From a virus (taxonomy: Duplodnaviria; Caudoviricetes): a stretch of 64,000 nucleotides of DNA. Made by a program: the position numbers and the translations under genes. The DNA lies in IMG/VR virus record IMGVR_UViG_3300021400_000491, positions 1-64,000 of that record. One strand, written 5' to 3'. Below, one piece after another: positions 3,644 to 13,377 of this stretch. Position 1 is the stretch's first letter. Each line of letters starts with the position of its first letter. The notes beneath the pieces were generated by a model. The model saw only the letters and a list, made by a program, of their open reading frames with translations. It was not told where the DNA came from and searched no databases.

Positions 3644-6061
3644 ATGGCAAGAATAATGAATCTGGGAGTATGGCACAAGGCTTATATGCTTGAAATTATG
3701 GGGCTACAAAAAGAAGACGGTTTTAGCCTTAGTTCTGCTTTGAATTTCAGCGGTTCAGAAGTGTTTACTTTTGCCTTGCCTCCAGAAGCGGAAGATTTTG
3801 ACTATTCTCAAAGAGTGACCGAAACAAAGACTTTCGGCGGTGCTGTATTCGATGATTACGGCAACGATACTTTCAAAATTACCATTTCCGGCTCTACAGT
3901 AAACAATGAAAAGAAACTTATTTACAGGGGAACAAAAGCAGTTCCCGAATATCTGACAGGCGAAAAAGAAATATTCAAGTTGCGTGATTTACTCTACAGA
4001 AGCGGGAAACTTGAAAACCTTGAAGGAAAGAAAGTCTATCTGTATGACCTTTCTAAGATGTCGGCTTTGCAGATTGCAGCCGGAAGCCCTTCTAAAAATA
4101 GCTGGTGGCGGGTACAGATTAAGTCACTCAAAATCAAAAGGTCAAAAGACAAGCCATTTACATACAATTACACACTCGAAATGATTGGATATTATGAGGA
4201 CAAGAAATCAATTCCAAGTCTTTTCGGTGGCGGTGTAGCTGATTTTATTTCCGGGGCGCAAAATGTTCTTGAAACTATCAACACAGCCTTTGCAACGGTT
4301 GAAATGGCAGCAGGGCTTTGTGCTGATATTAAAGCAAAAATAGACGAAACTAGCAAACTTATAGAAAACATTGACAATCCACAAGAAGCAATTCAAGTTA
4401 TAGGTGGCTTTGAAAGGGCTTTAATTGGTACATCTACCGTAAATGCCACTTATAATTCAGCAAAATCATGTGCCGCCTTATGTGGAAAATTAACAGAATT
4501 CAATGATGCAATGGGGCTTTCTGATGATACATCGAAGAGCGGAAGCATAAGCGAAGATGAAAAGTTTATCGTAACATTTGACGCAAACGGCGGACATTTT
4601 ATTGTCAAAGAAGAAGAGGTAGACAAGATAACAGAATCGGTTTCTTATTCTCAATCTGCAACAAAGCCGGAAACTGACCCGACAAGAACGAATTACGAAT
4701 TCGCTTATTGGTATCAGCTTTCAAGCCCGGACACAGAATTCAATTTCAAAGACACACCGATTAAGGCTGATATTATTCTTTTTGCAAAATGGGTACAGAA
4801 AAAAGCCGTTGTCACTTTCAATTCTCGCGGTGGTTCTGCTGTTGATTCGCAGACGGTTGATATTGGCGGAAAAGCCACAAAGCCGGAAACTGACCCGACA
4901 AGAGCAGGATATAACTTTACTCAATGGTGTTCAAATTATGCGGCAACTATCGCCTTTAATTTTGATACCGTGATAAATGAAGATACGACTATCTATGCTG
5001 CATGGGCAAGAATAACGGCGGTTACTGTCACATTCGACAGCAAGGGCGGTTCTGATGTTCCTTCGCAGAGTGTAGAGCCGGGAAATAAAGTTGTAAAGCC
5101 GGATAATCCGACTAAAGATAATTGTGTTTTTGGCGGCTGGTTTTCGGACGCTGAGTGTACAACGGAATTTGATTTCAGCCAGAATATCACTTCATCTATT
5201 ACTCTTTATGCAAAGTTTACACAGAGCTATTTCGATGTGACTTTTGACGCAAACGGCGGAAGTGCGGTAGAAAAGCAGACTGTAATAGGTGGTGGTACGG
5301 CAACAATCCCGGAACAACCGACAAAAGACGGTTACACTTTTGATTTCTGGTGTACAGATTCGGGGGCAACAAACGAATTCGACTTTACAACACCGATTAC
5401 GGCAGATACCACACTTTACGCAAGGTGGGTTTTGAATCAGTACACAGTAGCATTTAACAGTAACGGCGGAAGCAGCGTACAAAGCCAGAGCGTAGAGCAT
5501 GGAAAACTCGTTGTATTCCCGATTATGCCGACAAAGACAAACTACTCATTCTTTATGTGGTGTAAGGATAAATACCTTGAAGAAGAATTTAGTTTCTCAA
5601 CGCCTGTTACATCTGATTTGACCTTATACGCTCGCTGGTTCGGAAGTTCTTATAGTTTTGCTTTCGATTCTAACGGCGGTAATACTATTCCGACACAGAC
5701 GATTGAGAACGGCAAGAAAGCAACAAGAGTTGTACCTGCAAAGGCAGGAAACACTTTTGAAGGCTGGTTCTCTGATGAAGAACTAACAAAAGAATTCAGC
5801 TTTGACACGGCGATTGTGCATGACATGACTGTTTGGGCGAAATGGCAGCCGGACACATTCACGGTTACTTTTGAATCTAACGGCGGTTCGGAAGTAGACC
5901 CACAGACTATTGAATACGGAAACACGGTAACACAGCCGGACAATCCAACTAAGAGCGGAAGCGCATTTAGTGGCTGGGATTCTGATGAAGAACTGACACA
6001 GGGCTATGATTTTAGTAGTTCTGTTACATCTGATATAACGCTTTACGCAAAATGGAGCTGA
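3644..6061 (+). CDS. Tail/baseplate initiator-like protein with 7 InlB B (Listeria-Bacteroides) repeats
   Basis: N-terminal FTFALPPE..TETKTFGG..ITISGST domain; 7 repeats of about 70 aa, VTFDxNGG..PT(K/R)xGYxFxxW..FDF..ITxDxTLYAKW. Confidence 0.8.
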   Translation: MARIMNLGVWHKAYMLEIMGLQKEDGFSLSSALNFSGSEVFTFALPPEAEDFDYSQRVTETKTFGGAVFDDYGNDTFKITISGSTVNNEKKLIYRGTKAVPEYLTGEKEIFKLRDLLYRSGKLENLEGKKVYLYDLSKMSALQIAAGSPSKNSWWRVQIKSLKIKRSKDKPFTYNYTLEMIGYYEDKKSIPSLFGGGVADFISGAQNVLETINTAFATVEMAAGLCADIKAKIDETSKLIENIDNPQEAIQVIGGFERALIGTSTVNATYNSAKSCAALCGKLTEFNDAMGLSDDTSKSGSISEDEKFIVTFDANGGHFIVKEEEVDKITESVSYSQSATKPETDPTRTNYEFAYWYQLSSPDTEFNFKDTPIKADIILFAKWVQKKAVVTFNSRGGSAVDSQTVDIGGKATKPETDPTRAGYNFTQWCSNYAATIAFNFDTVINEDTTIYAAWARITAVTVTFDSKGGSDVPSQSVEPGNKVVKPDNPTKDNCVFGGWFSDAECTTEFDFSQNITSSITLYAKFTQSYFDVTFDANGGSAVEKQTVIGGGTATIPEQPTKDGYTFDFWCTDSGATNEFDFTTPITADTTLYARWVLNQYTVAFNSNGGSSVQSQSVEHGKLVVFPIMPTKTNYSFFMWCKDKYLEEEFSFSTPVTSDLTLYARWFGSSYSFAFDSNGGNTIPTQTIENGKKATRVVPAKAGNTFEGWFSDEELTKEFSFDTAIVHDMTVWAKWQPDTFTVTFESNGGSEVDPQTIEYGNTVTQPDNPTKSGSAFSGWDSDEELTQGYDFSSSVTSDITLYAKWS
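4560..6058 (+). repeat. Seven tandem coding repeats of about 210 bp (InlB B-repeat)
   Basis: Protein-level repeats; exact 27-bp DNA duplicate ACAAAGCCGGAAACTGACCCGACAAGA at 4661 and 4877. Confidence 0.85.
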
Positions 6062-6795
6062 TTATGATGTTAGAAACTGATGATGATAAGAAAGATTCTC
6101 TGATTGACGCGGAAACAGAGTTGAATTCTTGCGTATGTAAAATTGTTGCAGCCGTAAAACAGAAACAGACGATGTACGAGCCTGTTGTTTATGTTGATAC
6201 AGAAGGAAATGACGCTATCGCTTATGTGTACGATTCCCGGAAAATCCGCATGAGTTCAACAATGACGCTTGATAAACTCGCCGAAAAGTTTTTCGGAAAT
6301 GCGGATTATGCAAGTCTTATTGCTTACTACAACAATATTCAGAATGAGCATGAAATAGAAGCAGGAACGATTATAAAGATTCCTATTCTTTCGCCAGACG
6401 AATCAAACGCAAACAACCGTATCTATGCCATTCCGGGAGATACTGACAATTACGGTCGTGACATTGCGCTTGATGATGAGGGCGATTTTGCCGTACAGAA
6501 CGGAGATTTTGCCACAACAAGCAGCGTTGAAAACCTTAATCAAGCTATCGCAATGCGCCTTACAACAGCTTCGGAAAAACGCATAAGGTACAACGCTTAC
6601 GGTATCAAGGCACAAATCGGAGAAGAAGCCGTAAAGAATTACCTTTTGAGTACGGTTGAGCAGACTGTTTTAGCTGACCCTCGCGTAATGGAAATCAACG
6701 AGATTTCGGCAAGCAGCGACAATGACAAGATTTATATTGCCGTGGATTACACGGATATAAACGGAAATAAACAAAAAATGAATGAAGAGGTGTAA
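6052..6795 (+). CDS. LysM-like plus gp25/GPW-like baseplate wedge protein
   Basis: TLDKLAEKFFGNADYASLIAYYN..GTIIKIP (LysM-like), then GRDIALD..ENLNQAIAMRLTT..DPRV (gp25-like). Confidence 0.7.
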   Translation: MELIMMLETDDDKKDSLIDAETELNSCVCKIVAAVKQKQTMYEPVVYVDTEGNDAIAYVYDSRKIRMSSTMTLDKLAEKFFGNADYASLIAYYNNIQNEHEIEAGTIIKIPILSPDESNANNRIYAIPGDTDNYGRDIALDDEGDFAVQNGDFATTSSVENLNQAIAMRLTTASEKRIRYNAYGIKAQIGEEAVKNYLLSTVEQTVLADPRVMEINEISASSDNDKIYIAVDYTDINGNKQKMNEEV

Positions 6796-6797
6796 AT

Positions 6798-7871
6798 ATG
6801 GCAGACATCAAAAGATACGATGAACTTATGGAAGAAGCCTGCGCGAATATGATTGCAAGGCAGAACAAGATAACCGACTTTAACGAAGGTTCTATCATTC
6901 ACACGATTTTAGACACTTTTTGCCGCATTGTGGAAAGAGTGTATATTGCCATTCGTTCCGGGTTCAATCAAGGCTTGATTATGCTGATTTATTCCGTATT
7001 TAAGTTTGAGAAGAAAAGCGGAACTTATGCAAGCGGAAAAGTAACATTCAGCCGGGCTAGTGCATTGGACGCAAGAACGGTTATTCCTTCGGGCGTGAAG
7101 GTTTCGGGGAATGGTTTTAATTTTGTAACAACGGAAGCCGGAGCTATTGAAGCTGGCGCGGTTGATTCTGATGAAATCACGATAAAGGCAGAAGAAGCCG
7201 GAAGTGACTATAACTTGGAAGCTGGGGCAATTACAAGTATTGATTCATCTGTACCTAGCGACATTTCAGCCGTAACAAACAAAAACGCAATCACAGGCGG
7301 AACAAACGAAGAAACAGACGCGGAAGTAGAAGAACGGTTTACAAAGAAACTCGCCGGACTTTCCGGCACAAATCTTTACGGCATTGAGGACGCAGCTTTA
7401 AGCGTTGATTCTGTACGCTCTGTATCGGTAAAGAATCACAAGCCACCGTTGAAGAATGTTTATCATGTTTCGGTTTATGTTGACGATGGCTCTGGAACGG
7501 CAAGCGATGAACTTTTGCAGGAAGTGAAGAAAGCCGTTGAAGGAACGGAAACGCAGAACGGACACCTTGCACCGGGAGTAAACGCCCGCTATCTTGCTCC
7601 AACCGCCGTACCTGTTGATTTTGAGATTGAAGTTTCTACAGGTGATGTTGATACGGCAGAAACACAGGCAGAGATTAAAAAGATTGTTCAATCTTATGTA
7701 AATTCGCTCCGTATTGGCGGTACGGTTATTCTTTCAACGATTGTCGCAAAAATCCGGGCATTGTCTTATGTGTCTGATGTTACGATTAAATCACCGACTG
7801 AAAACTTTACCGTAAATAGTGAGCAGATTGCACGGTTTGGAAACGCAGAAATTACAGTTGTGGAGAGTTAA
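6798..7871 (+). CDS. Baseplate J-like protein
   Basis: ITDFNEGS, ITGGTNEETDAEVEERF, EAGSDYN motifs of the Baseplate_J family. Confidence 0.9.
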   Translation: MADIKRYDELMEEACANMIARQNKITDFNEGSIIHTILDTFCRIVERVYIAIRSGFNQGLIMLIYSVFKFEKKSGTYASGKVTFSRASALDARTVIPSGVKVSGNGFNFVTTEAGAIEAGAVDSDEITIKAEEAGSDYNLEAGAITSIDSSVPSDISAVTNKNAITGGTNEETDAEVEERFTKKLAGLSGTNLYGIEDAALSVDSVRSVSVKNHKPPLKNVYHVSVYVDDGSGTASDELLQEVKKAVEGTETQNGHLAPGVNARYLAPTAVPVDFEIEVSTGDVDTAETQAEIKKIVQSYVNSLRIGGTVILSTIVAKIRALSYVSDVTIKSPTENFTVNSEQIARFGNAEITVVES

Positions 7872-9184: not shown

Positions 9185-11653
9185 ATGTCTAATTTGGCAG
9201 GAGCGGTAACGCTTGAAAACGAAATCGTGAAAGCGACAGACTTTCAGTATGCTCACGACCAGCAGTATAAGAACATTGCACTTGTACTGAAAACTATTGT
9301 ATCTGGGAGCGGGCATAACTTCATTCTTGGCGGTTCTGTAGCACCATATACAAACGGCGGAATGAATGTACAGGTTGACGGCTTGCTTGCGTATTGTGAC
9401 GCAAACAAGGAAGTAGGAATTGAAACAGAAATGACTAAGCCTGTTTCTGTTGAAGCTGCTGACGACACACTTGACCGTAAGGACATTGTGCAGGTTGCTA
9501 TTTCAGAAGTCGGCTTTGACGAGCAGAGCCGTGCATTTATCGACCCGGACACAAAAGTTAAGACTTTTGAACACATCAACACAAAGAAAAAAGTTGTGCT
9601 GACTATTTCTGTAAAGAAAGGTTCAAACGGTTCTGAAATTGCGCCTGCAGTTGATGAAGGTTGCGTAAAAATCGCTGAAATTTCTGTTCCGGCTGGCACT
9701 CTTAACATTACATCTGACTTGATTGAAAATGTTTCTTCAAGAGTTGCGGGCGGTGAAAATGTGAATTGGACGGCTGATAAAGATTCTACTTTTGCGCCGA
9801 TTTACCTTGCTTCACTCATTCGGAGCTATCTTACACAGCACAATGAGGATGGCACACACAAGAATAATTCCATTGTTGCGGCAATGCTGAAATTCGGCAC
9901 TGAATCCGGCTCAATCAATGCAAGCCTTTTGCCTGTTGGCGAGAGCATGACATTGAATAAGGTTTCTCACGAATCTGTAGAAAGCACAAAAGAGCTTATT
10001 AAGGCTATCGTGACTTTCTGCAATGGTGTCTATGCTTACACAAACAATATTTTCTCACGCTATGAATATCTTGAAGATGTTCCGGCAGCAGTTTCAACAG
10101 AAAATATTGATGTAACCGAAGGTGGGGAAACAACTATTGACGGCGTTTCTGTAACAGCAGGTCAGATTGTTTTCTTGAAAGACCAGACAGACAAAAAAGA
10201 AAACGGCTTGTGGGAAGTTCAGACAGGAAGCTGGAACAGAGCGGACGACTACGAAGAATCGACAACAGCCTTTGACCACAAACTTGTTTTTGCAGCAGCA
10301 GGAACAGTGAATAAGGGGAAGGTTTTCTTTTTGCCGGGCAACACTTACATAATCGGCACTGATGAACTTGATTTTACAGAAGCAAACTTCACTTCTGACA
10401 AACAGGCTCACAAATTCGTTATGCGTGACGAGAACGGACGCGCAAAAATGGCAGAGCCGGAAGAAGATGATGATATTGCTACAAAGCATTATACAGATTC
10501 ACAGGTAGCCGCTCTTGATACAACTATCGGTCGTGGTGTAAGAAATATCTGGTTTCCTCGTAAAAGATGGTTGCGTTTTGACTTCTCTGATTCTAGCCAT
10601 AAATCGGTTAAAATTGACAAGGGTGTTTATATTCCGCTTGATTCAAGCCGTGTATTCTATGCAGACACAGAAAAACACATTGATTTGTCGGAGTATTTAA
10701 CACTCGCAGGTAAAGATTATTATATTTACCTTGTACCGAATGGCGAAGGAACAAAATTTGTAGCTTCTATCAATTCATCAGCTCCTAGCGATGTTTCGGA
10801 AAATTACACAACTGAAAATACTCGCAGAATCGGACAGCTCCACACGGAATGTGTAGCAATTCCTGCTGACACAACTATGCGTCACAAAGATTCTACGGCT
10901 ATAACAGATATTCAGCCTATGCTTTTGATTCCTTATACTGACGAAGATTCAGACTTTAAGGAATTCTACACAAAAACACCTACTAACATTACAACAGGAA
11001 CAAACTTCAACACTTTCACTGTACCTCACCCTCTTGCTGGTTGGAGCGCTGGTGATATTATCCCGGAAAGTATTTTCTGTATCGGATTTATGCCGCTTTC
11101 TTCTGCCGATGGAATGTTCTATGTAAAAGAGCTTGATGTAGCTATAGACATTTATTTGCAAAGTGGAAGAGGAAGTCTTACAAAATCTGTTTACGGTGGT
11201 GCAACAACAAGAAGTAGAGCGCAGGTAAATCATACAGACGATATGCTTGCAGTCGGTAAACAGCTTCTTTCTGACGCTGAATTTACACTTGGAGCTATGG
11301 GAAGTAACGAGCAGACATCTATATCTGGTGCTGCTGAATCGTCAATTACTACCGCAGGTGGTCATGTAGATTCTGCTGGTCGCCGTATGGTCAGCGCAAG
11401 AGGTGGCGAGGACTTCTGTGGTGGAGTATGGCAATGGCTTAGAGATGTTTCTGCTAACGGCGGTTCTGATTGGTCAGATTATGCAGGTGGTGTAAAGTTT
11501 GGTCAAACTTATGGTTCTTCCTACGCCTTGCTGGCGGGCGGCGCTTGGAACAGTTCTTCGAATTGCGGTTCTCGTTCGCGGGGTGGTGACTATTCGCGTG
11601 CCATTGTGTATGCGAATTTCGGGGGGCGCGGGTCGAGCCGCATAAAAGCGTAA
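9185..11653 (+). CDS. Tail fibre / receptor-binding protein, DGR target (Mtd-like C-type lectin C-terminus)
   Basis: Follows baseplate genes; C-terminal GRRMVS.RG.EDFCGGVWQW and ALLAGGAW..SSNCGSRSR..R..V....GGRG; carries VR. Confidence 0.9.
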   Translation: MSNLAGAVTLENEIVKATDFQYAHDQQYKNIALVLKTIVSGSGHNFILGGSVAPYTNGGMNVQVDGLLAYCDANKEVGIETEMTKPVSVEAADDTLDRKDIVQVAISEVGFDEQSRAFIDPDTKVKTFEHINTKKKVVLTISVKKGSNGSEIAPAVDEGCVKIAEISVPAGTLNITSDLIENVSSRVAGGENVNWTADKDSTFAPIYLASLIRSYLTQHNEDGTHKNNSIVAAMLKFGTESGSINASLLPVGESMTLNKVSHESVESTKELIKAIVTFCNGVYAYTNNIFSRYEYLEDVPAAVSTENIDVTEGGETTIDGVSVTAGQIVFLKDQTDKKENGLWEVQTGSWNRADDYEESTTAFDHKLVFAAAGTVNKGKVFFLPGNTYIIGTDELDFTEANFTSDKQAHKFVMRDENGRAKMAEPEEDDDIATKHYTDSQVAALDTTIGRGVRNIWFPRKRWLRFDFSDSSHKSVKIDKGVYIPLDSSRVFYADTEKHIDLSEYLTLAGKDYYIYLVPNGEGTKFVASINSSAPSDVSENYTTENTRRIGQLHTECVAIPADTTMRHKDSTAITDIQPMLLIPYTDEDSDFKEFYTKTPTNITTGTNFNTFTVPHPLAGWSAGDIIPESIFCIGFMPLSSADGMFYVKELDVAIDIYLQSGRGSLTKSVYGGATTRSRAQVNHTDDMLAVGKQLLSDAEFTLGAMGSNEQTSISGAAESSITTAGGHVDSAGRRMVSARGGEDFCGGVWQWLRDVSANGGSDWSDYAGGVKFGQTYGSSYALLAGGAWNSSSNCGSRSRGGDYSRAIVYANFGGRGSSRIKA
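11524..11636 (+). repeat. DGR variable repeat (VR) ending in GC-rich IMH GGGGGGCGCGGGTCGA
   Basis: Aligns ungapped to 11809-11921 (offset 285). Confidence 0.95.
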
Positions 11654-11680
11654 GACCGCACAAAGAAAAAAGAAAAACGA

Positions 11681-11722
11681 CACCGCGTAGCGGTGCTTAG
11701 TGGTGCGGCGTAAGCCGCCCAC
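11681..11722 (+). other. Two GC-rich hairpins downstream of VR (DGR target-recognition cruciforms)
   Basis: CACCGC-GTA-GCGGTG (11681-11695); GTGG(T)GCGGC-GTAA-GCCGCCCAC (11700-11722). Confidence 0.7.
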
Positions 11723-11808
11723 ATTCTAGCTTTATTTGTAGGGATAACAGTAATTGAATCAATCAAATTATTGTTATATATTAAAAGAAGTAGTGAAAGG
11801 TTAAATCG

Positions 11809-11921
11809 CGCCTTGCTGGCGGGCGGCAATTGGAACAATTCTTCGAATTGCGGTTCTCGTGCGCGGAATGGTAACAATTCGCGTGCCAATGTGAATACGA
11901 ATATCGGGGGGCGCGGGTCGA
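11809..11921 (+). ncRNA. DGR template repeat (TR)
   Basis: 10 AAY codons plus ACG and ATC; no other adenines in the coding-frame part. Confidence 0.95.
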
Positions 11922-12036
11922 TACGGGGTAGAGTAACTCCGGCTGAATCTTTCACTCTGGCGGAATGCCTAAACACGAAAAGGAGTGGCAGCCCTACTAG
12001 TAGCAATATGCAAATGCAGGGCTGCCTTTTCTGTCT

Positions 12037-13056
12037 ATGAAAACTTGGGGTAATTTGTGGACTCCGTTTATTACGGAAGATAACTTTGGTATTGCACATA
12101 CATTAGCAGGAAAAGGAAAATCAAAGCAGAAATTAGTACAGGAATTTGAAAAAGATTCTGATGGAAACCTTGCCGAATTAAGGCAAGAAAATATAGACGG
12201 CACTTATCATACATCGAAGTATCAGAGTATGACGATTTATGAGCCGAAAAAGCGTATAATTTATGTATTACCATTCAAAGACAGAATAGAACATCACGCT
12301 ATTGTAAATGTATTAAAACCTTATTACGAGCGTTATTTTATAGCGGATAGTTACGCTTGTCTTGATGGTCGCGGACAACAGGCAGCAGTACAAAGATGTA
12401 TGCAAGCCCTTAGAAGAAATACATTTTGTATGGAAGGTGATATACATCATTTTTATCCGTCAATCTGGCATGACAAACTGTTTAATCAATACAAAGCTAA
12501 AATCAGAGATAACAGATTCCTTGAAGTATTGGAAGATAATATATATTCGTTTCCGGGAGAGAGAAATATCCCGATTGGAAACCTTACAAGTATATGGCAT
12601 GGGAATTTCCATTTAACACAATTAGATTTGTTTTGCAAACATGAGTTAGGCATACATGATTATTTGCGTTATTGTGATAATTTCTGGTTATTCGGCAATG
12701 ATAAAGCATATTTGCATGAGTGCAGAAAACGAATAGAAGAATTTATTTGGGAACAAATGGGATTGGAGTATAGCAAAGCAAATGTATTCAATGTAAAACA
12801 GGGCGTAGATTGTCTTGGCTATAGGCTTTTTGATAATTATATTCTTGTAAGGAAGAGTACGGCAAAGCGTATGAAGAATAACATAGCAAAACTTCCAGAA
12901 CAGTTTGAAGCCGGAGAATTGACCGTAGAACAGTTACGCTCTAAACTTGCAAGTGCTTCTGGTTGGTTACAACACGCCAATGCTCATAATCTTGCAATAA
13001 GTATGAGAATAGATGAAATAAGGGAAAAGTATATTCCATTGAATACAGCAGCATAG
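12037..13056 (+). CDS. DGR reverse transcriptase with atypical YCDN motif
   Basis: KKRII..PFKDRIEHHA, FIADSYAC..GRG, GDI.HFYPSI, IPIGNLTS, RYCDNF, GVDCLGY. Confidence 0.93.
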   Translation: MKTWGNLWTPFITEDNFGIAHTLAGKGKSKQKLVQEFEKDSDGNLAELRQENIDGTYHTSKYQSMTIYEPKKRIIYVLPFKDRIEHHAIVNVLKPYYERYFIADSYACLDGRGQQAAVQRCMQALRRNTFCMEGDIHHFYPSIWHDKLFNQYKAKIRDNRFLEVLEDNIYSFPGERNIPIGNLTSIWHGNFHLTQLDLFCKHELGIHDYLRYCDNFWLFGNDKAYLHECRKRIEEFIWEQMGLEYSKANVFNVKQGVDCLGYRLFDNYILVRKSTAKRMKNNIAKLPEQFEAGELTVEQLRSKLASASGWLQHANAHNLAISMRIDEIREKYIPLNTAA

Positions 13057-13074: not shown

Positions 13075-13377
13075 ATGCACAAGTTTTCAGACTTCGCAAC
13101 GGACGATGAACACCTTGAAGGTGACAAAGTTTCGTTTAAAGATATTATAGACAAGCAAATAATCATTTGGAAATACATTCAAATGCGTTCTCAATTCCAA
13201 TCAGAGTATTGCGCAATGATTCAGTTTTCTTATGAAGAAAAAGGTGTTAAGTATGTCACTTTTTCTTCTAGCGAAGTAATTCTTACGCAGCTTGAAAAGT
13301 ATAAGGAGCAAATGCCTTTTGAAGCTACAATTCAGCAAAGAAAGAGCGGGAAGCATTACTATTACATAATCACATAA
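13075..13377 (+). CDS. Small DGR-associated accessory protein, not Avd-like
   Basis: Directly after RT; F.D.....LEGDK....DI..K.I...C..IQF...V.F.SS.V..QL.KY...PF.A.I pattern, which I recall beside RT in Avd-less DGRs. Confidence 0.6.
   Translation: MHKFSDFATDDEHLEGDKVSFKDIIDKQIIIWKYIQMRSQFQSEYCAMIQFSYEEKGVKYVTFSSSEVILTQLEKYKEQMPFEATIQQRKSGKHYYYIIT

Follow-up and report, generated by a model that had tools for sequence, protein, structure and literature searches.

A lineage of DGR reverse transcriptases (RTs) appears to have permanently swapped the second Asp of the YxDD box for Asn and still to support adenine-specific diversification of the VR, the swap being part of a coordinated rebuilding of the palm. 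We put the probability of this reading at about 0.78. Conservation of the Asn, purifying selection, convergence, co-variation with other residues, and VR turnover at TR adenines were all observed in comparisons of related loci. From the same sequences we infer that the DN enzyme itself would make cDNA and that a glutamate in motif A, Glu133, would stand in for the lost Asp.

Both YxDD aspartates have, to our knowledge, been regarded as essential to all reverse transcriptases, and mutants made inactive at YxDD are a standard negative control. In the literature searched, no description of a reverse transcriptase with YxDN was found. In the DiGReF survey, both Asp residues are 100% conserved in DGR RTs (PMC3521204). 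Metal binding at the polymerase site of HIV-1 RT is disrupted by D186N (PMC1976467), and the double change of D185N and D186N leaves the enzyme inactive (PMC5498913).

Layout of the DGR

The RT gene lies in a DNA stretch of 64,000 nucleotides (the window; positions 1 to 64,000 of IMG/VR record IMGVR_UViG_3300021400_000491), which is part of a virus record of 83,270 bp with a completeness rating of 100%. The DGR is a complete phage DGR with target, VR, TR, and RT all present, and its RT is the sole one encoded in the record. Coordinates are those of the window unless a relative is named, and all features described lie on the + strand. When the DGR region was compared with the GenBank phage collection by blastn in distant mode, no match was found, and an IMG/VR scan with the window RT returned two distant canonical relatives only.

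The target gene (9185-11653) closes the baseplate module and encodes an 822-aa tail-fibre/receptor-binding protein with the VR at its C-terminal end. Residues 468-564 match the second domain of Mtd in Pfam (E 1e-8), and the protein matches a PHROG tail protein (E 3e-31). Baseplate genes lie upstream of it in the window, and in related loci it is syntenic with Baseplate_J and sheath-initiator genes. The VR (11524-11636, 113 nt) was recognized as a direct repeat with the TR at 89% identity, and ends 17 nt short of the stop codon of the target gene. Its G+C-rich 3′ end (11620-11636) is common to VR and TR, which diverge beyond it, and forms a putative IMH-like element.

Just 3′ of the target stop, two G+C-rich hairpins are predicted at 11680-11722, the second with a GTAA loop; the fold of 11654-11740 has an energy of −28.6 kcal/mol (z −2.7). 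A hairpin flanks the VR in the DGR of Bordetella phage BPP-1, and by analogy the hairpins here are candidates for a role in retrohoming. The TR (11809-11921, 113 nt), identified by its repeat match and located 285 nt downstream of the VR, contains 22-23 adenines, which in the VR frame fall on first and second codon positions only. The spacer between TR and RT (11922-12036) contains a predicted 9-bp G+C-rich hairpin at about 11987-12026, with a z of −1.7 only, which is presumably part of the template/primer RNA. The RT itself (12037-13056) is a 339-aa protein of the DN type, with matches to Pfam RVT_1 (E 8e-13) and to the BPP-1 enzyme, bRT.

The BPP-1 DGR (mtd VR, avd, TR, brt; structure 8ub7) resembles this one in several respects. 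Its RT is 32% identical and of the same RT family. Both systems have an Mtd-like tail-fibre target with a C-terminal VR, a TR directly upstream of the RT, an adenine-only VR/TR pattern (11/12 in the window), a G+C-rich 3′ repeat end, and hairpins after the VR. On the other hand, the gene order of BPP-1 is target-avd-TR-RT, whereas that of the window is target-TR-RT-small OB-like ORF, without an Avd gene. The two enzymes also differ at the active site, as bRT has K136...D138, YMDD, and SQ187, and the window RT has E133...D135, YCDN, and SI.

Avd is common, although not universal, in DGRs. No match to Avd (PF05635) was found at E ≤ 1 across the whole 83-kb record. Directly downstream of the RT is an ORF of 100 aa (13075-13377), whose AF2 model (pLDDT 84.8) has the OB-fold-like topology β1-β2-β3-α-β4-β5. 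Its best structural matches are OB folds of the SSB/PriB type (Z 4-6.3), and Foldseek of the model against PDB gave nothing below E 0.1. A homologue of this ORF occurs in 24 of 29 close loci and in 71 of 80 GTDB loci of the window RT family, the latter from many phyla, usually directly after the RT (for example at 7044-7346 in locus L004, 7043-7345 in L019, and 7001-7300 in L026) and in some loci overlapping the RT end. It is kept with DN and DD RTs alike, and is almost absent (2/84) from loci of another DGR RT family. Its product might serve as an accessory subunit that binds nucleic acid in place of Avd.

Active site of the RT

An earlier note on this DNA, made from its letters, had read the catalytic box as YCDN instead of YxDD, and the reading is correct. 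The codons TAT TGT GAT AAT at 12670-12681 give Y-C-D-N in the frame of the ORF 12037-13056, so that Asp214 of motif C is kept and the second Asp is Asn215, with position 12679 as the first base of its codon. The ORF is uninterrupted, as the note had said, and its length matches those of homologues. In motif A (E133-G134-D135, 12433-12441), the catalytic Asp135 is kept, and Glu133 stands where canonical relatives have Lys. A check for the canonical RT site thus found the motif A Asp (D135) and the first YxDD Asp (D214) present and the second absent (N215).

Residues 177-186 are N-I-P-I-G-N-L-T-S-I, and within this stretch motif B/4 (P-I-G-N-L-T-S-I, 12571-12594) reads IGNLTSI, which departs from the DGR signature [I/V/L]GxxxSQ by Ile in place of Gln. 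The note was right about this SI, although its view that NIPIG is also a deviation does not hold, since N177-x-P-I-G-N is invariant in 56 aligned relatives and is the family norm. Also invariant among these 56 are K71, R73, D135, I180, G181, and D214.

The best solved relative of the window RT was bRT (8ub7), found by phmmer against PDB with E 4e-39 over residues 6-321. In this alignment YCDN falls on the YMDD of bRT (D215, D216), with D214 on D215 and N215 on D216; E133-G-D135 falls on K136-S-D138; and SI falls on the SQ of I181-G-S-L-T-S-Q187, with Ile on Q187. The AF2 model of the window RT has a pLDDT of 91.3, and the top five Foldseek matches to it were all bRT (best 8ub7_A, TM 0.85/0.88).

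Ile or Met takes the place of the SQ Gln across the whole clade of RT clusters P0001-P0020. SI/SM is older than DN and is also found in the YCDD relatives of the larger clade. The Gln is a marker rather than a requirement, because bRT Q187P left adenine misincorporation unchanged (PMC7826257). In loci L019-L025 (RTs P0009 and P0017), the RT has YCDD and SI, yet VR and TR differ at adenines only. Therefore, the Gln is not needed for adenine mutagenesis in nature either, in agreement with the Q187P result.

Inheritance of the Asn

The earlier note had left two choices for the altered box, namely an element recently switched off by point mutation or a divergent clade with an altered metal-binding site, and had proposed an alignment of homologous RTs as a check. 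Among 120 database homologues, the closest clusters (P0001-P0008, 70-98% identity) all have xxDN followed by F-W. These are clusters at 90% identity, about eight or nine of them down to 70% identity. The next twelve clusters (P0009-P0020, 64-70%) have YCDD-F-L, and nearly all the remaining homologues are YCDD. The Asn at the second catalytic position is thus conserved down to 70% protein identity, and the possibility that all close homologues carry YCDD, which would have made it a private allele, is contradicted by the closest clusters. In the tree, the DN RTs form a clade (aLRT 99) that lies within YCDD relatives with SI/SM.

The DN state is under purifying selection. Between the RTs of the window and of locus L010, dN/dS is 0.106. 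Other pairs of DN RTs have dN of 0.07-0.26 with saturated dS, similar to a pair of DD sisters at 0.05. Codons within the DN clade are GAA/GAG at 133, AAT/AAC at 215, and AAT/AAC at 249, with synonymous variation only.

A prophage in a Treponema MAG from roe deer omasum (L114) has an RT 75% identical to that of the window with the same motifs. Genome matches after L114 are mostly to Treponema or Spirochaetaceae, and because of them the host is probably a spirochaete; the window phage is probably a phage of Treponema.

A recent private loss-of-function allele, or a sequencing error, could in principle have frozen a successful fibre variant, as one G-to-A transition suffices to change GAT to AAT. 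However, nine clusters made at 90% identity have the Asn, reaching down to 70% identity; it comes from independent samples as well as a MAG, and its codon varies between AAT and AAC. The same Asn codon occurs in independent assemblies, those of L010 (RT 98% identical) and of the Treponema MAG, which disposes of an error. Purifying selection on a clade-wide Asn with synonymous codons, and VRs that still differ between near-identical DN carriers, are at odds with a recent switching-off, and we give such an event practically no chance. The divergent clade, the other choice of the note, is supported as far as sequence comparison reaches, and a coordinated switch of three residues, described below, adds detail to it.

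The canonical sisters of the DN clade (P0009-P0020; L019-L025) are 64-70% identical in RT and have in common with it SI/SM, the locus layout including the 100-aa ORF, adenine-only VR changes, and sometimes the phage backbone. They differ in having K-D-D at positions 133, 215, and 249 and FLLF after the box, where the window clade has E-N-N and FWL[F/G]. A common backbone was seen in L007 (DN RT with FNDN, P0005) and L019 (YCDD RT, P0009), both of which have GP46, Baseplate_J, Mu Gp48, target, RT, 100-aa ORF, 104-aa ORF, and D12 methyltransferase. The DN and YCDD types of RT therefore serve interchangeable modules.

Incidentally, the cluster representative P0157 is a DGR-type RT with YMDV that has kept Lys at the position two before the Asp of motif A (motif A −2). 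Unlike the DN lineages, it could be a truly inactivated enzyme.

Co-variation and repeated origin

In the sequences of 121 close homologues, DN is always accompanied by changes at 133 and 249, an association newly found here. The positions that change together with D215N between the DN clade and its YCDD sisters are K133E (motif A −2), D249N, L217W, and L119Q. A second DN group (P0042 and P0061, with FSDN/YADN followed by F-N) shows K133E, D249N, and L119Q again, but L217N. The Asn249 codon of the window is at 12781-12783, and this position is Asp or Glu in 92 of 110 DD relatives. Over 121 homologues, the triad 133/215/249 is K-D-D in 83, K-D-E in 9, and K/Q/R-D-x in a few, while all the DN RTs (11/11) have E-N-N. 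No mixed state between K-D-D/E and E-N-N was found among the 121.

Holding the two DN clades together was rejected by the AU test (ΔlnL 46, p-AU 0.0002), which was run on 27 rows with five trait columns removed and on a grouping named after a tree had been seen. By this test, the DN switch arose at least twice among close homologues. Recombination was considered as the source of the common E-N-N and rejected: in a scan with 40-residue windows, clade 1 was never closer to clade 2 than to the YCDD sisters, being equidistant in one of them.

A more distant set consisted of the 150 best representatives from a search over 1.84 billion cluster representatives (29-50% identity). Four more DN RTs were found in it, with motif A −2 being Glu in P0128, Asp in P0190, and Ser in both P0210 and P0218; P0128 also has Asn at the equivalent of 249. 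In the 143 DD representatives, the same residue is Lys (106), Gln, His, Arg, or others, and never Glu, Asp, or Ser. None of these three residues was found at motif A −2 of DD RTs in 270 database homologues, nor in 159 further locus RTs from IMG/VR and GTDB. P0128 and P0190 lie in DGRs where 14/14 and 12/12 VR/TR mismatches are at adenines. When the YMDN representatives P0210 and P0218 were used to seek a DN locus in IMG/VR, none was found among 82 loci.

On a 181-row tree, DN requires 6 changes, at least 5 of them on well-supported branches. The motif A −2 residue switches with DN in 5 of 5 independent pairs on this tree, with a sign-test p of 0.0625, which is the lowest that five pairs allow.

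Diversification in DN loci

The claim of the earlier note that the VR has clearly been mutated was borne out, as the window VR differs from its TR at 12 of 113 positions, 11 of them TR adenines and one a TR G replaced with T. The lone non-adenine mismatch, T at 11576, is private to the window, and L010 has G there. The TR of the window also differs from that of the 96%-identical L010 phage, at 11837, 11840, and 11846.

Wherever a DN locus extends to the target, its VR and TR are 87.5-94% identical. The mismatches at TR adenines are 11/12 in the window, 13/13 in L010, 14/14 in L004, 11/12 in L005, 9/9 in L007, 8/9 in L009, 7/7 in L014, 10/10 in L015, 12/12 in L016, 12/12 in L114, 12/12 in L030, and 14/14 in L031. 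In DN loci, roughly 40-65% of the TR adenines were changed, compared with roughly 30-72% for DD loci, and neither in this share nor in the mutation spectrum was a difference evident.

Near-identical phages that carry DN RTs have different VRs. L004 and L005, whose DN RTs are identical, differ at 16 of 113 nt in the VR, 15 at TR-A sites, compared with 48 differences in the other 6,928 nt. L015 and L016, with identical RTs of the second DN clade, differ at 11 VR positions, all TR-A sites, and at 11 positions in 7,987 nt. The window and L010 (RT 98% and phage 96% identical) differ at 20 of 113 VR positions, 18 at TR-adenine sites, and at 91 in 2,845 nt. These VR changes happened under a DN RT, because DN is older than the entire clade at 70% identity. 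The three pairs are thus evidence, drawn from sequences, that diversification went on after the change from Asp to Asn.

Could the DN RT be dead or nearly so, with a canonical DD DGR RT from the host, or from another phage residing there, diversifying the VR in trans and the DN protein retained for something else, for example as an RNA chaperone or scaffold? A single D-to-N change at the second YxDD position impairs retroviral RT (PMC1976467, PMC5498913), and the Treponema MAG with the DN prophage encodes a further DGR-type RT, which is canonical. That RT is, however, very distant from the DN RT (profile E about 1e-30 in two pieces, with no significant BLASTP alignment), and DGR RTs use their own TR-spacer RNA, as for bRT-Avd (bioRxiv 10.1101/2023.10.23.563531). 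The window phage, for its part, encodes one RT only. The other catalytic residues and those binding dNTP are invariant at dN/dS of about 0.1, which a mere scaffold would not need, and the at least five independent DN origins, each with a matching motif A change, resemble compensation within an active site. Diversification in trans therefore seems improbable to us, and we favor a DN RT that works in its own DGR.

The second RT of the MAG (L195/L196; G001, contig 20, about 179431-180600) is 464 aa long. It has the canonical motifs K..D, SQ, and YVDD, and an insertion between fingers and motif B.

Two further observations concern the repeats and their surroundings. L004 and L005, which are bioreactor phages, have 48 differences in 5.5 kb upstream of the VR and none in the 1,457 nt (5585-7041) that begin at the VR end and take in the TR and the RT. 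This pattern points to a TR-RT module that has recently swept or been exchanged, or that is much more strongly constrained. In L003 (5773-5885), the VR is joined to the TR with 283 nt missing, giving a hybrid repeat that is VR-like on the 5′ side and TR-like on the 3′ side, and therefore the target ORF runs into the RT. Rather than a real deletion, the join most likely reflects a repeat that collapsed during assembly.

Possible role of Glu133

In the RT model, strands are formed by residues 130-136 (motif A), 208-212 and 215-220 (the motif C hairpin), and 245-252. The strand order of an RRM-like palm sheet is β4-β1-β3-β2. From the modeled secondary structure and this general palm topology, residues 133, 215, and 249 would lie on three adjacent strands, with 133 in the central one, 215 and 217 on one side of it, and 249 on the other.

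We propose that in the canonical state Lys133 would bridge Asp215 and Asp249, and that in the DN state a single Glu133 carboxylate would be held by the amides of Asn215 and Asn249. Changing K-D-D to E-N-N in this way would leave the net charge unchanged and keep an acid beside the catalytic center. Taken one step further, the third catalytic carboxylate would have moved, Glu or Asp at motif A −2 on the neighboring strand supplying the acid of the second YxDD Asp, and this rewiring would have evolved repeatedly. We offer this step only tentatively, and consider it somewhat unlikely. If it is true, metal preference, catalytic rate, or adenine misincorporation could have changed.

Alternatively, the DN RT is active and E-N-N is a structural swap of ion pairs only, the second Asp being dispensable and Glu133 being away from metal and substrate. 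The cryo-EM structure of bRT reports its cation on D138 and D215 only, at 2.2-2.3 Å from both (bioRxiv 10.1101/2023.10.23.563531), and the equivalents of these two residues, Asp135 and Asp214, are retained in the window RT. Also, the two distant DN lineages with Ser have no acid at motif A −2, which would argue against a strict need for one there, and Gln or His occupies this position in 33 of 143 DD representatives. On the other hand, an acid (Glu, Glu, Asp) is found at motif A −2 in 3 of 5 DN lineages and in no DD RT of the sets read, and the net charge is exactly kept between K-D-D and E-N-N. We regard a purely structural swap as a serious possibility, although with less than an even chance. 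A rebuilt palm with continued adenine-specific diversification is what we retain as the main reading.

Discussion

The change in the window RT falls at the same YxDD position as HIV-1 RT D186N. However, D186N is an engineered single change, whereas the one described here arose in nature, is conserved, and comes with changes at two more residues. A natural Asp-Asn pair is also found in motif C of the L polymerases of non-segmented negative-strand RNA viruses, which have GDNQ and are active (PMC5648267). We draw an analogy only and claim no homology, since these are RNA-dependent RNA polymerases, related to the window RT by the palm fold alone.

A natural RT lineage has thus been found that lacks the second Asp, is under strong purifying selection, belongs to an element that keeps rewriting its target at adenines, and shows recurrent partner substitutions. 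The change from K-D-D to E-N-N is a concrete three-residue hypothesis, testable by a few point mutants. Working DGRs would be overlooked by annotation pipelines in which an RT must have YxDD or SQ to be kept. For mutagenesis tools built on DGRs, the DN RTs offer natural variants of the active site, which may differ in rate, metal use, and error spectrum. If the third carboxylate has indeed moved, YxDD would be no universal requirement for reverse transcription, and the DN RTs would be a natural variant series for studies of DGR infidelity.
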